64,000 nt of DNA from Escherichia phage vB_VIPECOOM01. Under the pieces are notes generated by a model. The model saw only the letters and a program-made list of their open reading frames with translations, did not search any database and was not told the origin of the DNA. The translations under genes were made by a program, and so were the position numbers. Of this stretch, positions 18,956 through 28,189 are shown piece by piece (position 1 is the first letter of the stretch; the number at the start of each line of letters is the position of its first letter). The stretch is taken from the sequence record OQ721909; one strand, 5' to 3'.

Positions 18956-21052
18956 TTATCCTTGAACGAACTTGTAAGGCATGTTTGTAATATCTATGCA
19001 AGACGCAATAATTCCAAGAGATGATTCTGCTTTCTGTTTAACATTTGATGAAACAAATGATGCAAAGTCAACTCTGTCTTCTATTTCAATATCACCTGTC
19101 ATTGCAACCAATTCACCAGTTTCCATTAAATGGTCTCCATCATAGATTACCGATTCGGTGAGTTCTTCCGTAGTCATAACTTCAGCTTGAATGAGTTTTG
19201 TATTATTAGATGTTGTTCCGTCATTATTGGAAGCATCAGTTATTTTATTAACTTTGACCATCAATCCGCGTGGTAAAATAACTTCAGCTTCAGTTGCTAT
19301 TCCGAGACTTCCTGGATATACAACATTAACTTTATGAGCTCCATCAATTGCCCATCCTATTTGAACTTTAACGTATTCAGGATTTTCTTTATACGCTCTT
19401 ATTTCGTTTGGATTAATAGTTATTCCTTCTTCATTTTTATCAACTGTTAATTCATTGCGAGCTTCTGGTTCTAAAAGACCAATACCAGCATGCGTAATTC
19501 CAAAACGTCCAAAAATGATAGGAGTTAAAGAAGTAGATACAAAATTTCTGAAATAGAACACTTTATTTTTAACTAGTGCTTCGTATATAGGAGCAGTCAT
19601 ACTTTGAGCACGATAAACTGTAATGCCTTCTGGTATACGGTCACCATTTTCAAAGGCTGAATCTAAATTATTTATCGCAGATTCAATTTCTTTTTCACTC
19701 ATTACATCATATCGTTCTGGATTATAGCGTCCTAAAAGAAGATTATTGATGTCAGTATATCCTGATCCACAATACTCTCTAATGCCGCGCTTTTGCGATG
19801 GAGTATATTTAGAACCATCACGGGCAATAGTAATATCAATCATTGGACCTGCACCAATTCCAGAAAAGCTATAAATCATTCGTTTGAGGAATTTAGTTTT
19901 TGCTGCGTTCCAGGAATTTTTAGTTATTTCTTCCCAGACTTCATCTGGCTGTCCTTTACGGGTTTTATTATGTTTATCAAGCCAAGTATCTTTATATTCT
20001 TCAAAGAATTTATTAATAGCTGCTGCATACTTCTCTAAACATTTTATTGAAGTAGTTGGTTCATTTTTGATCGCGTTAAAAATTACATCTTTAATTTTTT
20101 CAGAAACTTCATTAACCTCACTTTTTGAAAAGAATTTATAGTCATAGTGAAGTTCATCTGCAGTCCCTTCGGCAATAATTTTTGCTGCCTTAGTTTTAGA
20201 AGCTAATGAATTAATTCCAAGTTTCATTTCTTCCGCTTCGGGAATTAAAGGAGCTGTAGCAGGTTTATTGAAATTAGCTGCAGTAGATTCATACTTCTGG
20301 AATAATTCACTTTCAAATCTAGAAGATTCCAATGACTGACTTTGTGCAATTGCTCTACGGGAAATTTTAACTTTAACTATTACAGCTTGGTCAGAACGTT
20401 TATCGTTTTCTTGCGCAATAGATGCTGCAATTGCCTCATTTTTAGTTACTTGAGCTCCAGTATCTTTATTGATATAAACATCGCCGACCTTCGATTCAAC
20501 TTTAGTAAAGAGCTCGGTACTAATTTCTGGAACTCCTGGAATGTCTTCTAGTGATACATTTTTGCGATGTATAAGAATATATGCATACTTTTTATCGTAA
20601 TCCCAGAGTTCCTTAAGAAGGACGTATCTGCCACCTGAACGACTACGGATAAGTCTATCAGCAATAACTTGAATTTGTCGAGCTTGACCAGCAGTTTTAG
20701 ACTTAAGAATACGGAGCATACAGGCATCAATTTTATACTGACGCATCGTCTGCATTGCAACAGTAAAAACTGAATTGATATAATTAATTGGGCTTGGACC
20801 GAGACCTTTTAATTTAGCAATTGAACCTTTAGCAGTTAATGTAAAAGGAACAATATGCATCATTTTATCGCCCATTTTTAAATCGCGATTAGTATCACCT
20901 CCAGATGTATAGGTACATAAACGAAAGCCTGGTTGTTCAATTGCGTCATCAACATGAACTGAAAAAATTTGCGGTATTTTCTTCTTTGGATTTAAGTTTG
21001 TAATCGGAAGAGTAGTATCTTCGTCAAATAATTCTGTAATGAGTTCCATCAT
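18956..21052 (-). CDS. alt: Alt ADP-ribosyltransferase (capsid-packaged, modifies host RNA polymerase)
   Basis: 698-aa ORF matching T4 Alt (MELITELFDEDTTLPITNL..., ART motifs YRAQ, FVSTSL, TEAEVILPRG). Confidence 0.93.
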   Translation of the reverse strand: MMELITELFDEDTTLPITNLNPKKKIPQIFSVHVDDAIEQPGFRLCTYTSGGDTNRDLKMGDKMMHIVPFTLTAKGSIAKLKGLGPSPINYINSVFTVAMQTMRQYKIDACMLRILKSKTAGQARQIQVIADRLIRSRSGGRYVLLKELWDYDKKYAYILIHRKNVSLEDIPGVPEISTELFTKVESKVGDVYINKDTGAQVTKNEAIAASIAQENDKRSDQAVIVKVKISRRAIAQSQSLESSRFESELFQKYESTAANFNKPATAPLIPEAEEMKLGINSLASKTKAAKIIAEGTADELHYDYKFFSKSEVNEVSEKIKDVIFNAIKNEPTTSIKCLEKYAAAINKFFEEYKDTWLDKHNKTRKGQPDEVWEEITKNSWNAAKTKFLKRMIYSFSGIGAGPMIDITIARDGSKYTPSQKRGIREYCGSGYTDINNLLLGRYNPERYDVMSEKEIESAINNLDSAFENGDRIPEGITVYRAQSMTAPIYEALVKNKVFYFRNFVSTSLTPIIFGRFGITHAGIGLLEPEARNELTVDKNEEGITINPNEIRAYKENPEYVKVQIGWAIDGAHKVNVVYPGSLGIATEAEVILPRGLMVKVNKITDASNNDGTTSNNTKLIQAEVMTTEELTESVIYDGDHLMETGELVAMTGDIEIEDRVDFASFVSSNVKQKAESSLGIIASCIDITNMPYKFVQG

Positions 21053-21072
21053 ATCCTCTCTAGTGTTTATTC

Positions 21073-21080
21073 TATTTATA
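21073..21080 (-). promoter_or_regulatory. T4-type late promoter (TATAAATA) for alt
   Basis: Minus-strand TATAAATA about 20 nt upstream of the alt ATG, consistent with late expression of a packaged protein. Confidence 0.5.
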
Positions 21081-21085
21081 AAATT

Positions 21086-21103
21086 AAAGGCCCGAAGGCC
21101 TTT
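21086..21103 (-). terminator. Hairpin terminator after the 62-aa ORF
   Basis: AAAGGCC-CGAA-GGCCTTT hairpin right after the stop codon, followed by T-rich sequence on the minus strand. Confidence 0.45.
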
Positions 21104-21290
21104 AATAATCTAGTGGTAAGAGAGTACGGTATATTTCAAACTTCGGACCTTTTTCATAGGCATCAAATGTTTCTGTAAATTTATTATAAGCATATGCATC
21201 TACAAATTCAAGAACGATTTGTGATACAGAAGTAGAAACATCTCCACCTTCTTTTTGAGCCACGACAATTGTTTCTAAGTAAGCTTTCAT
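21102..21290 (-). CDS. Hypothetical protein, 62 aa
   Basis: ATG overlaps the DNA ligase stop codon (ATGA), indicating translational coupling; followed by a terminator hairpin. Confidence 0.55.
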   Translation of the reverse strand: MKAYLETIVVAQKEGGDVSTSVSQIVLEFVDAYAYNKFTETFDAYEKGPKFEIYRTLLPLDY

Positions 21291-22747
21291 AGACCAGTTA
21301 CCTCATGAAAATCACCAAATACATCCTCGAATGTATTAGCTTTAGTTTTATCTTCACGTAAACGAATCGCAATTGGAAGAAATAATTTAACGTAATCAGT
21401 GCGGCCATCAGATTTTAACCAACCATTGCATTCGCACTCTAGAATTTTTCCAATATAATAATTTTGGTTTTCCATAATGCGAGTACGGTCAAGTTCATGT
21501 GATTTTACACCGGCTTTATCTTTTAAGCCTGAACCTGCATTTACTTTAATTTTTCCACACTCTGATTCAAGAATAAATCCACCTGCTTTAGTAGGGTCTT
21601 TACGGTGAGGATAAATTCCTACAATTTTTAAATCAACATCAATTACTTCTTTAAATTTATAAAGATTTTTTGAACGAGCATTTTCCCACAATCCATCGGT
21701 ATTTTTGAGAATAATACCTTCAAGACCTTGGTCAATATATTTTTTATAAATTACCTTAGCTTCATCTAGGTTATTTACTACCTGGTTTTCAATTAAAATT
21801 ACTTTATCATATCCTGATGTCATTTGTTCTAGTTTAGAAAAACGTACATCATATTTTAAACGAAACGTCGGAAGACCGTATATTTCTACCAACGGAACAT
21901 AATCCCAGACCTGAAACTTCATGCATTTGGCTTCTTTTTCTGAAATAGTTCCCTTTAAAGATTTATTGGCGATTCCATTAGAAGCAGTACGAGATTCAGC
22001 TACTTCGGCAAACTCTTTAGCTTTACTGATTTCAGGAGCGTCAAAAAGAAAATCTAGGCCTTCTGGTTCCTTTTCAACTTGCTCATGGTATACCAATTCG
22101 CCATCAATTAACACACCTTCTGGATGAATCTGGCGGGCTTCAGCGGTCATTTTGATTAACTCTTCCTTAAGAAGATCTAATCCTAGATATTCATTACCAG
22201 CTCGTGATAAAAGACGAACATCATCTAATTCATCACCTCGAACTTCAGCAAAACACCGAGCTCCATCTGCTTTTAACTGTGCAAAGGCTGGAAATTTGAT
22301 ATTCTTACTAATGCCTTTTTCATCATAAGAACTTGCCAGCATTTGAGGTTGTTCAGGAATTAAACCTGGCCAAACTTTGTTTGCAATAGATACTGAAGCA
22401 CCGCATTCAAGGTCTCGCATCATAACTCGACGCAAAACTTCAACATCATCCTTTTTACCATCGGTGATATATCCAGTTAATTCCTCAATTGCTGCATTGC
22501 CAGTTAATTTCCGAGTAGCTAACGTGAATTCAATGAAGTCAAGCATATCGGTAATAGTCAACATTCCAAAACTCTGGGTAGCAATACCAGGTTTAGGCCA
22601 TTTCTTGATATAATACTGTAACCCACGAGAATAAGTCAGACGATATACTCGTTTAAGCAATTCATTATCTTTATTCTTTTCAAGAATTGCTTGCTTCTGC
22701 TTAGTTGATCCAATAGATGCTATTTCATTCAGAATTTTAAGAATCAT
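21287..22747 (-). CDS. 30: ATP-dependent DNA ligase gp30
   Basis: 486-aa ORF; adenylation motif KADGARC; N-terminus MILKILNEIASIGSTKQKQAILEKNKDNELLKRVY matches T4 DNA ligase. Confidence 0.97.
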   Translation of the reverse strand: MILKILNEIASIGSTKQKQAILEKNKDNELLKRVYRLTYSRGLQYYIKKWPKPGIATQSFGMLTITDMLDFIEFTLATRKLTGNAAIEELTGYITDGKKDDVEVLRRVMMRDLECGASVSIANKVWPGLIPEQPQMLASSYDEKGISKNIKFPAFAQLKADGARCFAEVRGDELDDVRLLSRAGNEYLGLDLLKEELIKMTAEARQIHPEGVLIDGELVYHEQVEKEPEGLDFLFDAPEISKAKEFAEVAESRTASNGIANKSLKGTISEKEAKCMKFQVWDYVPLVEIYGLPTFRLKYDVRFSKLEQMTSGYDKVILIENQVVNNLDEAKVIYKKYIDQGLEGIILKNTDGLWENARSKNLYKFKEVIDVDLKIVGIYPHRKDPTKAGGFILESECGKIKVNAGSGLKDKAGVKSHELDRTRIMENQNYYIGKILECECNGWLKSDGRTDYVKLFLPIAIRLREDKTKANTFEDVFGDFHEVTGL

Positions 22748-23013
22748 TGTTCATCCTTCAAAGTTTGATTTACATCTCTATTATAAATCAATTCATCATT
22801 AAGCTCAGGCAAAGACTTATGATATGTAGTTCTAACTTTATTTCCTTGCATCCAGTGCTTGACGTAAATGAAACCTTGCTCTACACATTTTTTAAAAATT
22901 CGTTCGTCTTTTTGAGCTCGGAATTCTGGATTGCATCTAAAAAATTGATTTACGTGACCGTAATCACGTGTAGTATTACCTTCATTTTCATAAATAGTAT
23001 GAACAACAAACAT
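22744..23013 (-). CDS. Hypothetical protein, 89 aa (position of T4 30.1)
   Basis: ATG ORF with start/stop overlaps to both neighbours. Confidence 0.55.
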   Translation of the reverse strand: MFVVHTIYENEGNTTRDYGHVNQFFRCNPEFRAQKDERIFKKCVEQGFIYVKHWMQGNKVRTTYHKSLPELNDELIYNRDVNQTLKDEQ

Positions 23014-23852
23014 TAGAATGCTCCTTGAAAAATATTATCACCACTAGTAGGTCTATTATACAAATACTCTATGCCACCAGGTTTAATATAGTTCCATGTC
23101 TGAAACGGATGTGTCTGATATGGATGATATAGATGATTATAAGGATTTAATCCAGGCGTTCTCCAGGTAGTGTTCCAAGGAAAAGAATCATTTTTAACCA
23201 TCTTCTCAATTAAATCTTTTATAGCTTTTTCACTATCAAAACTTTCTTTATTTTCCTTCGGCGAAAAAAGCTTATTTTCTACATCATTCCATGTATAAAC
23301 TCGCTGTGCAGTTTTTGGAATATTGTCACGCTCTCCTCGAGCCATCCAATAAACTGGAACATTTAATATTTCACTCGCATGATCGCAGTGATGAGCGAGA
23401 TCGTCAATATAACAAATTACGTTATATTTCTCTTTTGCCTTTTTGAACAGCTCTTCTTTTGAAGAATCATGACCACACATCATTACTTCTGAGAAGGCAC
23501 CAGGAAAAAGAGCATTCAAATTAAATTGACGATTCAACAGAGCGTCAATAGAATCACCCAATGCTGTAACAGCTACAAAATTATAATCTTCTTTTAATTT
23601 GTTAATTACACACAGGGCATCTTTATACGGAGACAAGTAACGAATAAAATCTGAACGATTGTATTTTTCAATTAACTTGACGCCAAGTTCTTCGTCACAA
23701 TTAAAGAGTTTACCTGGAGAAATAAATTTCTCATCTTGGATCATTTTTAAAATATGTTCTAATGGAAGATTATATTTCTGAGCAAAATAAGGAAGGCCTG
23801 ATTGCCAGCTTAAACATACTCCATCAATATCAGTTAAAATAGTAGGCTTCAT
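23013..23852 (-). CDS. Hypothetical HAD-like protein, 279 aa (position of T4 30.2)
   Basis: N-terminal DIDGV motif suggests a haloacid-dehalogenase-like phosphatase fold; assignment is inferential. Confidence 0.6.
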   Translation of the reverse strand: MKPTILTDIDGVCLSWQSGLPYFAQKYNLPLEHILKMIQDEKFISPGKLFNCDEELGVKLIEKYNRSDFIRYLSPYKDALCVINKLKEDYNFVAVTALGDSIDALLNRQFNLNALFPGAFSEVMMCGHDSSKEELFKKAKEKYNVICYIDDLAHHCDHASEILNVPVYWMARGERDNIPKTAQRVYTWNDVENKLFSPKENKESFDSEKAIKDLIEKMVKNDSFPWNTTWRTPGLNPYNHLYHPYQTHPFQTWNYIKPGGIEYLYNRPTSGDNIFQGAF

Positions 23853-24307
23853 AGAGAGTCTCTTAATAGGTTTAACACATCAATAAATTCAGCTTCGGTT
23901 AGTATTGTATCATCTTTTGTTAGACCACTAGCCATGCTGTGCTTCAAAACTTTTCCTTTCGAAGCTTGTAATGCATCACGAAAGCCCCTGTTTTGGATCG
24001 CTGCTTCAAAATATGCATTTGTGTATAATTCTTTCCACGCTGGAGAGTATCTTGAAAATGGAACTCCAAGCCAGAACAACGTGCCACGGTCCTGAGCTCT
24101 AGCATAAGACCTTCCAGCTTGTTGCGCATCCAATCCGGACATCCCAAATATACGTCTTTGCTGTTCAACATTTTTCACCTTACATCCTTGGAGGAATCCT
24201 TCGAGACCTCCAAATTGGATACCATCCATAACGAAAGGCCATTGGGCGAAATTACTTAATGCACATGATGGCCATCTAAAATTGCTTCTTATCTCTAGCT
24301 CAGACAT
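23849..24307 (-). CDS. NADAR-like (YbiA-type) protein, about 152 aa (position of T4 30.3)
   Basis: ALSNFAQWPF and EGFLQGCK segments resemble the NADAR signature; ATG at 24307 chosen over the track's upstream TTG. Confidence 0.6.
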   Translation of the reverse strand: MSELEIRSNFRWPSCALSNFAQWPFVMDGIQFGGLEGFLQGCKVKNVEQQRRIFGMSGLDAQQAGRSYARAQDRGTLFWLGVPFSRYSPAWKELYTNAYFEAAIQNRGFRDALQASKGKVLKHSMASGLTKDDTILTEAEFIDVLNLLRDSL

Positions 24308-24506
24308 TTTCAATACTTATAATTTCAACATCAGCCCAATGACCATAGCAAGGAAGACGAAATTCAACTGGCCAGTTAGGGTCCTTTTCTAATATAATAG
24401 ACTTAACTTGTGGTTCTTCATGTTCATCGGTATACGGACCTTTATACGTTACTTTATATGTGACCTTAATGTACTGAATTCCAAAAATCTTATTAATTAT
24501 ATTCAT
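24300..24506 (-). CDS. Hypothetical protein, 68 aa (position of T4 30.4)
   Basis: ATG ORF, overlapping neighbours in a coupled array. Confidence 0.5.
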   Translation of the reverse strand: MNIINKIFGIQYIKVTYKVTYKGPYTDEHEEPQVKSIILEKDPNWPVEFRLPCYGHWADVEIISIENV

Positions 24507-24700
24507 ACTAATTCCTTTAATCCATAGATAGGAGATAATTCATCACCCATACGAAGGTCTTCATTTCCATCTACCCAGGAAACAATATAAGCCTCTTTTA
24601 TTTGAATACCACTCCATTTAAATGGAGGTAGAACCTTAGAAATTAATCCAGGTATACCGACTCCCTTTAATTCAACAGTTTGACCCAAAAAGAATTTCAT
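24503..24700 (-). CDS. Hypothetical protein, 65 aa (position of T4 30.5)
   Basis: ATG ORF with 4-nt overlap to the upstream gene. Confidence 0.5.
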   Translation of the reverse strand: MKFFLGQTVELKGVGIPGLISKVLPPFKWSGIQIKEAYIVSWVDGNEDLRMGDELSPIYGLKELV

Positions 24701-24987
24701 TAGAACCTCATCTGAAAACCATGCGATTTAACATTACCGCCGTCAATATCAGAAATGTTAATTTCACGCGCAATTGAAGGGTCAATGTCAATTTCACGAT
24801 TGAGTTTAGCGATAGTTAGAGTATCGCGCCCATTTACAGTACGGAACTCTAAAGGGCAGACTACATTAACGTAGTTTTTAATCGATTCACTGGTAGGCTG
24901 CAAATGAGCAGGAAGGTCTTTAGGCGCCTTAGAGAAAACCACTTCACAGAAATTTTTGCGGGTATCAAAATAAGTAGTCATAAACAT
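24700..24987 (-). CDS. Hypothetical protein, 95 aa (position of T4 30.6)
   Basis: ATG ORF preceded by a GAGGA RBS and a stable hairpin. Confidence 0.55.
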   Translation of the reverse strand: MFMTTYFDTRKNFCEVVFSKAPKDLPAHLQPTSESIKNYVNVVCPLEFRTVNGRDTLTIAKLNREIDIDPSIAREINISDIDGGNVKSHGFQMRF

Positions 24988-25003
24988 AGTATTTTCCTCA
25001 GTA

Positions 25004-25019
25004 AGGGGCCGAAGCCCCT
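25004..25019 (-). other. Intercistronic C(UUCG)G stable RNA hairpin
   Basis: AGGGGC-CGAA-GCCCCT (UUCG loop on the mRNA strand) between the upstream stop and the next RBS; no U-tract on the mRNA strand, so probably a processing or stability element. Confidence 0.45.
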
Positions 25020-25027
25020 ATTTTATT

Positions 25028-25393
25028 TTAAATATCAAATTCGTTAAGAACTACATCAAAAATCGCTTCAAGATGCTCAGGTTTAGCTCTGTTACTCAGA
25101 ATATGACGAATCCAAGTTTTAACCAGAAGCTTACGATTGACGCCATTCCAGCAAGGATGAGTCCCTAAATCACGTTGACGGAAATCATCATCTAATGCGA
25201 TTTTAAAAGAAGAACCTTCTTTCGTGATTGAAACTGTGATGCCATTTTCAAATCGCATATAAACGTAGTTAGGAGTCATATACTGTTCAATTTCGCATAC
25301 TGATCCATTTTGATGTTTCCAAAGGCAAATAGTATCATTAGAACCTGCAATACCGTTAGAAACATATTTACGTTCAAAGTTGATGTAGTTCAT
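25028..25393 (-). CDS. Hypothetical protein, about 121 aa (position of T4 30.7)
   Basis: Track ORF starts at TTG 25405; ATG at 25393 has a GGAG RBS and is preferred. Confidence 0.55.
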   Translation of the reverse strand: MNYINFERKYVSNGIAGSNDTICLWKHQNGSVCEIEQYMTPNYVYMRFENGITVSITKEGSSFKIALDDDFRQRDLGTHPCWNGVNRKLLVKTWIRHILSNRAKPEHLEAIFDVVLNEFDI

Positions 25394-25429
25394 TTTATTC
25401 TCCAAGATGTTTAATTGTGGTACAGGTAT

Positions 25430-25458
25430 ATAATATCATATCCTGTACCAAAGTAAAC
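25430..25458 (-). promoter_or_regulatory. Early-type promoter with inverted repeat flanking the -10
   Basis: Minus strand GTTTAC, 17 nt, TATTAT; the -10 lies between 8-bp inverted repeats GGTACAGG / CCTGTACC. Confidence 0.4.
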
Positions 25459-25460
25459 AA

Positions 25461-25793
25461 TTATTTTACTACTTTCCAGTGCTGCATGTCAAGTTTACCA
25501 ACTTTTTTCATCTTCTCAATTAAGCGTTCTGCACGTTGGCGAGCTGTAACATAATACCATTCGCCTAATTCATTTTGTTCAATTTTTCCAACGATTACTG
25601 TATTCAATTCATAAATCCAACCAGTAAAGAAATTATGAACTTGAATTGTAAAGGTGAAATCTGTTCCCATACCTTCTGTTGTTTCTACTTCAATAATATC
25701 ACCTTCAACTGCCATTAAGAACCACATAGTTTCATCATATTTACCATTGAAGCATTTAGTTTTAACTGTAGCGTTCAGATTAATCGTTTTCAT
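25461..25793 (-). CDS. Hypothetical protein, 110 aa (position of T4 30.8)
   Basis: ATG ORF downstream of a terminator. Confidence 0.55.
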   Translation of the reverse strand: MKTINLNATVKTKCFNGKYDETMWFLMAVEGDIIEVETTEGMGTDFTFTIQVHNFFTGWIYELNTVIVGKIEQNELGEWYYVTARQRAERLIEKMKKVGKLDMQHWKVVK

Positions 25794-25871
25794 TTTATTC
25801 TCCTTTGCTTGTGTAAGATAATACTATCACAAAGGAACTATACTGTAAACAACTTTGTGCAATCTTTGGAA

Positions 25872-25899
25872 AATAAAAAAGGACTCCCGAAGGAGTCCT
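25872..25899 (-). terminator. Rho-independent terminator after the basic small-protein gene
   Basis: AGGACTCC-CGAA-GGAGTCCT hairpin followed on the minus strand by a run of 9 T. Confidence 0.6.
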
Positions 25900-25903
25900 C
25901 AAC

Positions 25904-26122
25904 TTATGCTTTCTGCTTACCAAAACGAGAAGCATCATCTCGAAGAACCGCACGTGCTCGGCGCATGATCTTCTCAACAGTTTGATTGATACGAGAGTTC
26001 GACCCACGCTTGTAACCAGCGCGTTTAGAATCACCAACTTTCTTTTCAACTGCTTTCTTTGCTTTAGCTTGTTTTGCCATTATAAATTCTCTTTTAAATG
26101 AAAATGCAGGACTTATTGGCAT
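25904..26122 (-). CDS. Highly basic small protein, 58-72 aa (position of T4 30.9)
   Basis: Lys/Arg-rich (MAKQAKAKKAVEKKVGDSKRAGYKRGS...); two candidate ATG starts (26122 and 26080). Confidence 0.5.
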   Translation of the reverse strand: MPISPAFSFKREFIMAKQAKAKKAVEKKVGDSKRAGYKRGSNSRINQTVEKIMRRARAVLRDDASRFGKQKA

Positions 26123-26274
26123 TGCCTGCGCAAGCCCTCAAGGGGAACATAGGTTTTGAGTATTTACCGACAGGATAACCATAAACCTCGTCAACATTCA
26201 AGAGGTACACCGTAAAACAAAGTTCGACGGCTCCTCGATTTTAGCTCACACTAAGGCAGTGAATCTCCAATAAA

Positions 26275-26523
26275 TTACTTCAGTGTTACCACAAAGTGAC
26301 GAACTGCTTTTCGTGCAGCAGAAGCCAGAGGCTTAGCATACTTAAGTTCATCTTTTTCCTGGAGCTCAGCAGCTAATGCAGTTTGAGCAGGATTCAGATG
26401 TTTGAAATAACGCAGGATTTCAAGGGCTTCGGCTTCAACATCAATAGATGCGCCATAGTTTTCGTGACCATTATTCCATGCGTTTCGTTGCAGTTCAAGA
26501 GCGTGTTGTAATTGTTTAATCAT
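26275..26523 (-). CDS. rIII: rIII lysis-inhibition accessory protein
   Basis: 82-aa ORF MIKQLQHALELQRNAWNNGHENYGASIDVEAEALEILRYFKHLNPAQTA, matches T4 rIII. Confidence 0.9.
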   Translation of the reverse strand: MIKQLQHALELQRNAWNNGHENYGASIDVEAEALEILRYFKHLNPAQTALAAELQEKDELKYAKPLASAARKAVRHFVVTLK

Positions 26524-26670
26524 TTAAAAATTCTCGTTAGAGATTAAAACTCGGTAGTCACGTTCTTCTGAATTTCATCTTCTTTCGACAGATCTCTCAG
26601 TTGTAGACTACCACGTAGAATTGTTCGGTTAACTTATTATTCCGACACCCAATTCATATTATTATTTATA

Positions 26671-27006
26671 TCACTTATAAAGACACGGAATAGCTTTATA
26701 GTGACAGGTAACGAATTTTTGTTTAATTTCTTTTGGCTGCTTAAGACCTAGAGCTACAAAAGGATGCGGAACGTTTCGAATTTGACCAACTGGAAGAGAA
26801 GTCAAATCACCAACTTCGCAGAAACCTTCAGGAACATCAGGACCAACAGAGTGAACTACACACAGTTCAGGAACTTCACCTTGAACACGTTTACCGATAA
26901 TGAGTCCTGATTCTGTAACTTCTTCATCACCAGCTTGCGCAGGTTCAGAAACTAAAATAACATATTCACCGACAGCACGAATTGGTAGCTGTTGTACTTC
27001 AGACAT
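26671..27006 (-). CDS. 31: gp31 co-chaperonin (GroES-like, required for gp23 folding)
   Basis: 111-aa [43 protein letters not shown], matches T4 gp31. Confidence 0.93.
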
Positions 27007-27036
27007 CGTTTTTCCTTTTTGTTAACAGATGAATTA

Positions 27037-27061
27037 ATAATAACAAATAATTCTTAAAGCA
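27037..27061 (-). promoter_or_regulatory. Putative MotA-dependent middle promoter for gene 31
   Basis: Minus strand TGCTTTA, 12 nt, TATTAT, about 30-55 nt upstream of the gene 31 ATG. Confidence 0.4.
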
Positions 27062-27062
27062 T

Positions 27063-27371
27063 TTATTTACCAATAAATTGAAGCAAATGCTCAACTTTCA
27101 TACCATTAACGGAAATCAATTTGTCAATAGAAAAACCTCGCCATGCACCAATCTCAACATCAAATACTGGAATCATATCAGTAGATTCTTTCCGAGTAGA
27201 TTCAGTCAATTTACCGGTTTGCATGGTTGGCATAAAGTCTGCATCACGAGTACCTTTCATAGTACGAATAGTACCATCAGACTTTTCAAAAACCACGTTT
27301 GAAATACCCATGGACAATTTAGTTTTCAAAATTTCACGAATTGCTACTTTCTGCTCAGTTGTCAGTTTCAT
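27063..27371 (-). CDS. Hypothetical protein, 102 aa (position of T4 31.1)
   Basis: ATG ORF; synteny only. Confidence 0.55.
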   Translation of the reverse strand: MKLTTEQKVAIREILKTKLSMGISNVVFEKSDGTIRTMKGTRDADFMPTMQTGKLTESTRKESTDMIPVFDVEIGAWRGFSIDKLISVNGMKVEHLLQFIGK

Positions 27372-27608
27372 TTATTTACCTATCACAGTTTTAATATGAG
27401 TTGTTCCACGTTCTTTAAGAGTGGAAAGTAATTTTTGGCATTTTTCTAAATCAGATTTCCAACTATACGGTCTATCAATACAAACCCATTCTGACTTATA
27501 ATACTGCTTCCATTTAGAGAAAAAATATTTCTTATACTCTACAGCAAATGAAATGTTCTCGTTAGAATAAGAACTAATTGCTGTGAGCTGTACCAAACGA
27601 AATTTCAT
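27372..27608 (-). CDS. Hypothetical protein, 78 aa (position of T4 31.2)
   Basis: ATG ORF overlapping the cd stop (1 nt). Confidence 0.5.
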   Translation of the reverse strand: MKFRLVQLTAISSYSNENISFAVEYKKYFFSKWKQYYKSEWVCIDRPYSWKSDLEKCQKLLSTLKERGTTHIKTVIGK

Positions 27609-28189
27609 TATTCACCACAGAATTCGTTGATATTTTCCCAGTTTAACTTATTCAAGTTTTTCTTAGGAACATTAAACACTTCAATACCTGCATTTCGCAG
27701 AATATCATCCCAGCCAGGTTTATTTTTATCGTATGTTTCACAATAAACCAACTTTTTAATTCCAGATTGAGCTATCGCTTTTGCACAATCTGGGCAAGGA
27801 GAAAGTGTTACATACATAGTAGCACCTTCAATTGAAGAACCATTTCGTGCAGCAAACAAAATTGCATTTAGTTCAGCATGAATTTCATTTTTAGACGACC
27901 ATTCAGAATGAGCGCTGCGGTGTTCTTTCGCCAAGACAAAACGATCAGTTGAACCAAATGATACACATTCAGGCTTATGACCTTGAATGATAGTATGTTT
28001 AGGTTTATTCAACAACCAACCTTGCTCGGCAGCATAATCACAGCAATTCACACCGCCTGCAGGCGAACCGTTATATCCAGTAGAAATAATACGTCCATTC
28101 TTTTCAATTACTGCTCCTACCTTCCAGGAGCAACATTTTGATTCTTGTGATACTAAATATGCAATTTGAAGTACTGTACTCGCTTTCAT
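27608..28189 (-). CDS. cd: dCMP deaminase
   Basis: 193-aa ORF with zinc-binding HAE and PCPDC motifs; matches T4 Cd. Confidence 0.93.
   Translation of the reverse strand: MKASTVLQIAYLVSQESKCCSWKVGAVIEKNGRIISTGYNGSPAGGVNCCDYAAEQGWLLNKPKHTIIQGHKPECVSFGSTDRFVLAKEHRSAHSEWSSKNEIHAELNAILFAARNGSSIEGATMYVTLSPCPDCAKAIAQSGIKKLVYCETYDKNKPGWDDILRNAGIEVFNVPKKNLNKLNWENINEFCGE

Follow-up and report, generated by a model that had tools for sequence, protein, structure and literature searches.

An intact T4 gp30.3 (AdfN) orthologue in a T4-like Escherichia phage, a predicted NADAR-type DNA guanine-ADP-ribose glycohydrolase

[quoted passage not shown] 2023, PMC11543638), and the gp30.3 proteins appear as phage NADARs in the 2012 classification of De Souza and Aravind, as it is cited in later work (PMC11543638, PMC11125620). 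In vitro, T4 gp30.3 strips guanine-ADPr but not thymidine-ADPr (Cihlova et al. 2024, PMC11125620). [quoted passage not shown] 2025, Nat Commun, PMC11825919). The T4 gene is both necessary and sufficient against DarTG1; its deletion from T4 and T2 abolishes plaquing on DarTG1 hosts, and ectopic adfN rescues RB69 (PMC11825919). Binding of the T4 protein to DarT1 was not detected; the protein de-ADP-ribosylates DNA in vitro, has no effect on DarTG2 and reaches full activity only in T-even infections (PMC11825919). Independently, a transposon screen published as a preprint in 2025 (HIDEN-SEQ) found 30.3/adfN to be conditionally essential on DarTG1 hosts, where insertions were lost, and tk.4 (AdfM) to be conditionally essential on DarTG2 hosts (bioRxiv 10.1101/2025.11.20.689424). 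Finally, a 2026 paper on the T4 NADAR and other families reported that all of them remove guanine-ADPr, and phage NADARs are missing from the cytidine-ADPr-reversing enzymes in its summary table (PMC12945103).

Three other groups of NADARs are useful for comparison. DarG1 has been reported as the NADAR clade closest to T4-type AdfN (PMC11825919), and its chemistry is the hydrolysis of guanine-ADP-ribose on DNA (8bat; E. coli C7 NADAR; PMC11543638). E. coli YbiA is a housekeeping N-glycosidase encoded in a LexA-controlled operon, which confers no protection against DarT1 in cells (PMC11125620). AdfN-Bas32, from a T5-like phage, and AdfN-Bas60, from a member of the Vequintavirinae, are phage-borne orphan NADARs which, like the T4-type enzyme, are guanine-specific and act against DarTG1, but they belong to other NADAR clades, were independently acquired and work outside the T-even context (PMC11825919).

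We analysed a stretch of 64,000 nucleotides from Escherichia phage vB_VIPECOOM01 (OQ721909), hereafter referred to as the window. On its minus strand, an ORF extends over 23849..24313 when counted from a TTG codon, and the ATG located two codons further in yields a gene of 152 aa at 23849..24307, which matches the annotation of gene 30.3 in T4. The original prediction had given exactly these coordinates for a ~152-aa protein, leaving the strand unstated. The encoded protein shares 148 of its 152 residues with T4 gp30.3 (97% identity) in a gap-free alignment covering all 152 residues. The four substitutions, with the residue of the window first and that of T4 second, are M56L, D60A, R107K and M125I; none of them falls in an invariant column of the family, and M125 is the majority residue of the gp30.3 family, T4 having the isoleucine. 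Membership of the phage gp30.3 family was confirmed by Pfam PF08010 (Phage_30_3), whose curated gathering threshold of 36 bits is far exceeded by the score of the protein (233.6 bits, E = 7.2e-70, model positions 1-138 of 138), and by a match to PHROG 652 (E = 2e-51). The reading frame is uninterrupted and terminates where that of T4 does.

With regard to its genomic position, the gene lies between 30.4 and 30.2, upstream of ligase gene 30, as in T4. The neighbours follow the T4 order (NC_000866) 30.8-30.7-30.6-30.5-30.4-30.3-30.2-30.1-30 (ligase), with every gene on the minus strand. The placement in the 30.x cluster therefore holds, the genes around adfN including those for DNA ligase gp30 (21287-22747), 30.1 (DUF3045, 22744-23013), 30.2 (a HAD-like hydrolase, 23013-23852) and 30.7 (PF06919, 25028-25405), all on the minus strand. 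From 30.6 through the ligase gene, each gene overlaps or abuts the next. At 24300..24307 (minus strand), the stop codon of 30.4 overlaps the start codon of adfN (AAAATGTCTGA, read directly and from the ORF coordinates), and at 23849..23852 (minus strand) the adfN stop overlaps the 30.2 start in an ATGA arrangement (CTCTATGAAGCC, from the sequence and the ORF coordinates). This layout is compatible with translational coupling. A scan of positions 21000-28000 for promoter and terminator consensus sequences returned 26 sites, compared with 24.4 expected in shuffled sequence, and was thus not above chance. A PADLOC search returned zero matches for the adfN protein or for its neighbour 30.2.

The gene is 100% identical to its counterpart in Escherichia phage vB_VIPECOOM03 (OQ721911), a T4-like Tequatrovirus, and so is the surrounding 24-kb stretch. 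In OQ721911 the gene is annotated as 'hypothetical protein, phrog_652'. We also noted that two genes for Alt-like RNA polymerase ADP-ribosyltransferases are annotated in the deposited record within positions 12000-36000 of the window. The phage's own protein ADP-ribosyltransferases and a predicted DNA de-ADP-ribosylase thus share one 24-kb stretch, without any functional link being implied.

The gene differs from T4 adfN at 29 nucleotides, 22 of which occupy third codon positions, and only four amino acids are altered as a result; this pattern points to purifying selection in the adfN frame. Counted by codons, 20 changes are synonymous and 4 are non-synonymous. Together with the full-length PF08010 match, the signature of selection identifies 23849..24307, on sequence grounds, as a real gene and not a chance ORF.

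T4 is also annotated with an 'internal translation' product, 30.3', whose 75-aa frame corresponds to 23944-24171 of the window (minus strand, +1 frame within adfN). We considered it as a second product of the locus and rejected it. Of 13 other alleles, 8 have ACG, ATT or ATC in place of the ATG, and among the five with an ATG, one is interrupted by a stop. In every case the amino-acid identity of 30.3' (62-83%) is lower than the nucleotide identity (81-96%). Of the 19 codons of the 30.3' frame that differ between T4 and the window, 18 are non-synonymous, compared with 3 of 17 when the 30.3 frame is read. Judging from these patterns, 30.3' is probably not a coding gene.

Homologues of the protein are widespread. 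A tblastn search found them in 1509 of 50,697 phage records, from phages of Escherichia, Klebsiella, Shigella, Aeromonas, Acinetobacter, Vibrio and others; among the matches listed for these records, almost every one is annotated as 'hypothetical protein'. When 1.84 billion cluster representatives were searched with a family profile, 1655 clusters were recovered at E <= 0.001. Among the recovered sequences are several longer metagenomic proteins with gp30.3-type NADAR domains (P0095, P0122, P0131, P0176, P0189 and P0228), one of which, P0095, has a tandem arrangement of three matched stretches in 480 aa. The fusion partners found in a Pfam scan (BspA-type LRR, Lgt, GDSL lipase and FtsW-like) are mixed and provide no functional hint. 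These proteins suggest either that cellular genomes also contain the 'phage' subfamily or that gene calling has created some of the fusions artificially.

Natural broken alleles of adfN recur in T4-like phages (database proteins P0007, P0014, P0015, P0016 and P0036). In phage SV76 the protein is truncated at its N-terminus and lacks both E36 and the SNF motif. Frameshifts have joined the 30.3 and 30.3' frames into hybrids in vB_Eco_NR1 and in one metagenome protein, and deletions have produced 30.8::30.3 (vB_EcoM-RPN226) and 30.7::30.3 fusions. In addition, L008 and the tblastn matches H35 and H36 cover only residues 1-144. Such alleles, like that of RB69, fit a counter-defence gene that is useful under some conditions and can otherwise be dispensed with. 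Given how common frameshifts, N-terminal truncations and deletion fusions are in T4-like phages, and that the RB69 allele is itself frameshifted, the allele in the window might be non-functional as well. We regard this as highly improbable, since the protein is full length with the T4 stop, keeps the 19 invariant residues of the family and the C-terminal helix, and is substituted in variable columns only; the excess of synonymous over non-synonymous codon changes also argues for continued selection.

The assignment to the NADAR superfamily was examined by profile and structure comparisons. A profile search had originally been proposed as a check of the NADAR relationship, which was borne out for the family but not for the protein searched individually. 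In a single-sequence Pfam search at E <= 1, the protein matched only PF08010 and not the NADAR family PF08719; phmmer against the PDB sequences returned only noise, and an NCBIfam search returned nothing. In contrast, a profile built from 67 full-length members of the gp30.3 family (34-88% identity) matched E. coli YbiA (2b3w) with E = 0.007 over the SNF...E...Q...K region, and 11 of the 67 relatives individually match PF08719, with a best E = 1.5e-7. Reciprocally, several YbiA-family proteins bear PF08010 matches. When the alignment of the 67 sequences was compared with a 40-sequence alignment of the YbiA family, hhalign gave a probability of 97.3% (E = 2.6e-11, 123 columns) and paired S18/N19/F20, E36, Q40 and K43 with S30/N31/F32, E48, Q52 and K55 of YbiA, respectively.

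The structural comparison agreed with the predicted relationship to YbiA. The AlphaFold2 model of the protein (pLDDT 92.8, pTM 0.88) retrieved only three solved structures from the PDB with a Foldseek probability above 0.1, and all three are NADARs with probabilities of at least 0.99: 2b3w (YbiA), which is the best match (E = 6e-5, TM 0.67 by query), 8bau, a Phytophthora (P. nicotianae) NADAR with ADP-ribose, and 8bat, a DarG1-type NADAR from Geobacter lovleyi. Against BFVD, Foldseek returned gp30.3-type proteins at TM of at least 0.9, followed by dozens of proteins that are annotated with a NADAR domain and belong to phages or giant viruses. Membership of the NADAR superfamily (YbiA fold, a helical core with small sheets on its flanks) is thus supported by profile and predicted-fold evidence, on which it has to rely because the protein gives no direct match to the Pfam NADAR family or, as a single sequence, to the PDB.

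The same alignments locate the residues that are likely to matter for catalysis. Nineteen residues are invariant among the 67 family members (P13, L17, S18, N19, F20, F25, E36, G37, F38, Q40, Q50, G58, A61, G65, A112, H123, T134, L136 and T137), and K43 is conserved in at least 90% of them; the allele in the window retains all 19. The two segments that had been singled out as resembling a NADAR signature, LSNFAQWPF and EGFLQGCK, are both present, and profile alignment identifies them as the canonical motifs. The first (residues 17-25; 24233..24259, minus strand) contains the invariant L17, S18, N19, F20 and F25 and aligns with FSNFAAWPI of YbiA. The second (residues 36-43; 24179..24202, minus strand) contains the invariant E36, G37, F38 and Q40 as well as K43, and aligns with E48/Q52/K55 of YbiA; its E36 and K43 correspond to the catalytic residues, the Glu and Lys of NADARs that contact ADP-ribose, and the substitutions E36A and K43A reduce the function of T4 AdfN (PMC11825919). 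A predicted C-terminal alpha-helix (residues 138-151; 23855..23896, minus strand) is intact in the AlphaFold2 model and is lost in the allele of the DarTG1-sensitive phage RB69, which carries a frameshift; truncation of this helix reduces activity (PMC11825919). The protein of the window and T4 AdfN have E36, K43, H123 and this helix in common; they also occupy the same genomic position and differ by substitutions at non-conserved positions only.

His123 (23939..23941, minus strand) marks the phage (gp30.3) NADAR subfamily. In the last strand, phage NADARs carry a histidine where YbiA has a glutamate and DarG1 an aspartate (PMC11543638, PMC11125620), and His123, which is invariant and located in a predicted strand (residues 120-123), fits this phage subtype, while its hhalign pairing differs by one residue. 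In the published alignments the phage histidine replaces the catalytic glutamate (PMC11543638, PMC11125620, PMC12945103), whereas hhalign places H123 opposite the neighbouring, near-invariant H126 of the YbiA 'VEHT' sequence, with E125 facing a gap. A shift of one residue along a beta-strand would flip the direction of the side chain.

YbiA shares the SNF and E-x3-Q-x2-K motifs with the protein of the window and is its best structural match, and the family profile matches the YbiA family. A YbiA-like housekeeping role could therefore be envisaged, in which the protein would act as an N-glycosidase on reactive intermediates of the riboflavin pathway and would have no part in counter-defence. 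However, identity to YbiA is only ~18-24%, the WGDGG loop is absent, and the invariant Glu125 of YbiA has no counterpart, the gp30.3 family having K/x-His. Furthermore, no riboflavin genes were found near adfN among the ORFs or in profile searches of the neighbours, and the T4 orthologue de-ADP-ribosylates DNA and has a phenotype directly tied to DarTG1 (PMC11825919). The housekeeping role is largely refuted by the T4 genetics, and we consider it extremely improbable.

The comparison with DarG1 is closer in chemistry, but the architecture differs. The fold is the same, whereas the protein of the window consists of the core only, with 152 aa compared with 219 aa for 8bat; it has no N-terminal extension, its SNF motif starting at residue 18, in agreement with published descriptions (PMC11825919, PMC12945103), and it carries a histidine instead of the catalytic aspartate. 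No darT1 gene adjoins adfN, whose neighbours are 30.4 and the HAD-like 30.2. Because it lacks both an adjoining darT gene and the N-terminal extension, AdfN does not strictly qualify as a DarG1 antitoxin. The T4 enzyme cannot replace DarG1 in uninfected cells (PMC11825919, PMC11125620), where it fails to rescue DarT1 toxicity (PMC11125620).

It is very probable that the gene encodes a functional AdfN, that is, a minimal 152-aa NADAR which is orthologous to T4 gp30.3 and would counter DarTG1. This assignment is based on the allele being intact, keeping E36, K43, H123 and the C-terminal helix, and differing from T4 at four variable positions. Integrity, orthology, NADAR fold, motifs and the conservation of the catalytic residues were observed for the gene itself, and the activity and the anti-DarTG1 role come from published experiments on T4. 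With its four substitutions confined to non-conserved positions, the protein would be expected to behave as the T4 protein does. In a host with DarTG1, DarT1 would attach ADP-ribose to guanines of the phage DNA and thereby block replication; AdfN would hydrolyse the guanine-ADP-ribose bond, so that unmodified DNA would be restored and the phage could replicate. As its target would be the modified DNA and not the toxin, AdfN may be described as a phage-borne orphan type IV antitoxin. The thymidine ADP-ribosylation by DarT2 would be left unreversed.

The original prediction had proposed that the gene could counter DarT-like host defence by reversing guanine ADP-ribosylation of DNA. This role has been experimentally demonstrated for the 97%-identical T4 protein (PMC11125620, PMC11825919, bioRxiv 10.1101/2025.11.20.689424). 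Its scope is narrower than DarT-like defence in general, as it covers DarTG1, which modifies guanine, but not DarTG2, which modifies thymidine, and the T4 enzyme is fully effective only in a T-even infection. The earlier interpretation is therefore supported, yet the idea had already been published and is not new.

Anti-DarTG1 activity could also be one role among several if the substrate is broader or different, for instance guanine-ADPr on RNA or the products of other guanine ADP-ribosyltransferases, such as pierisin/ScARP-like enzymes or further defence toxins. Representatives of all NADAR families have been reported to remove guanine-ADPr from RNA in vitro (PMC12945103), and AdfN, acting on the modification, should not discriminate between the toxins that produce it, a point raised by the authors of the T-even study (PMC11825919). 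The large size of the family, with its 1655 clusters at 50% identity and its presence in 1509 phage records from many host genera, is consistent with such a breadth. On the other hand, a phenotype in vivo has so far been seen only with DarTG1 (PMC11825919, bioRxiv 10.1101/2025.11.20.689424). A wider substrate range is thus conceivable but rather doubtful. We know of no other guanine ADP-ribosylating defence system in E. coli, which also counts against it.

Even if the gene encodes a functional AdfN, the dependence of the T4 enzyme on its infection context requires consideration. Non-T-even phages are helped only weakly by T4 AdfN (PMC11825919). Since the enzyme gives such weak help and fails in uninfected cells, a model in which the enzyme alone suffices is incomplete. 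DarT1 variants differ between hosts. The T-even factor needed for full activity of T4-type AdfN might be the downstream gene 30.2, putatively coupled in translation, which would make the two genes a small module for repairing or cleaning ADP-ribosylated DNA beside the ligase; we consider this very unlikely. In T4-superfamily phages the 30.3-30.2-ligase linkage is kept down to ~41-45% AdfN identity, but it is not found in ~60 more distant loci. Besides T4, adfN is linked to 30.2 in 19 of 82 related loci, all from the T4 superfamily, and 30.2 is absent within 4 kb of adfN in the others.

The product of 30.2 itself (23013-23852, minus strand) carries a 'hypothetical' annotation and matches no Pfam family. 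Sequence conservation and a structural model identify it as a hydrolase of the HAD superfamily. D8-x-D10-G11, T96, K132 and D150-D151 are invariant or nearly so in 38 homologues, and the AlphaFold2 model, in which residues 1-190 exceed a pLDDT of 90 and a C-terminal region of ~80 aa is of low confidence, matches HAD hydrolases in Foldseek, among them 5'(3')-deoxyribonucleotidases.

As the function has already been published for a 97%-identical orthologue, the finding is an ordinary one; it adds no new biology to the published work on T4, and its contribution is the correction of an annotation. Database annotation trails the published work, as the product is still described as a 'hypothetical protein' in the deposited record. 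The Tequatrovirus studied here carries an intact predicted counter-defence gene against DarTG1, and this is useful for the prediction of host range, for example for phage therapy cocktails directed against DarTG1-carrying E. coli.
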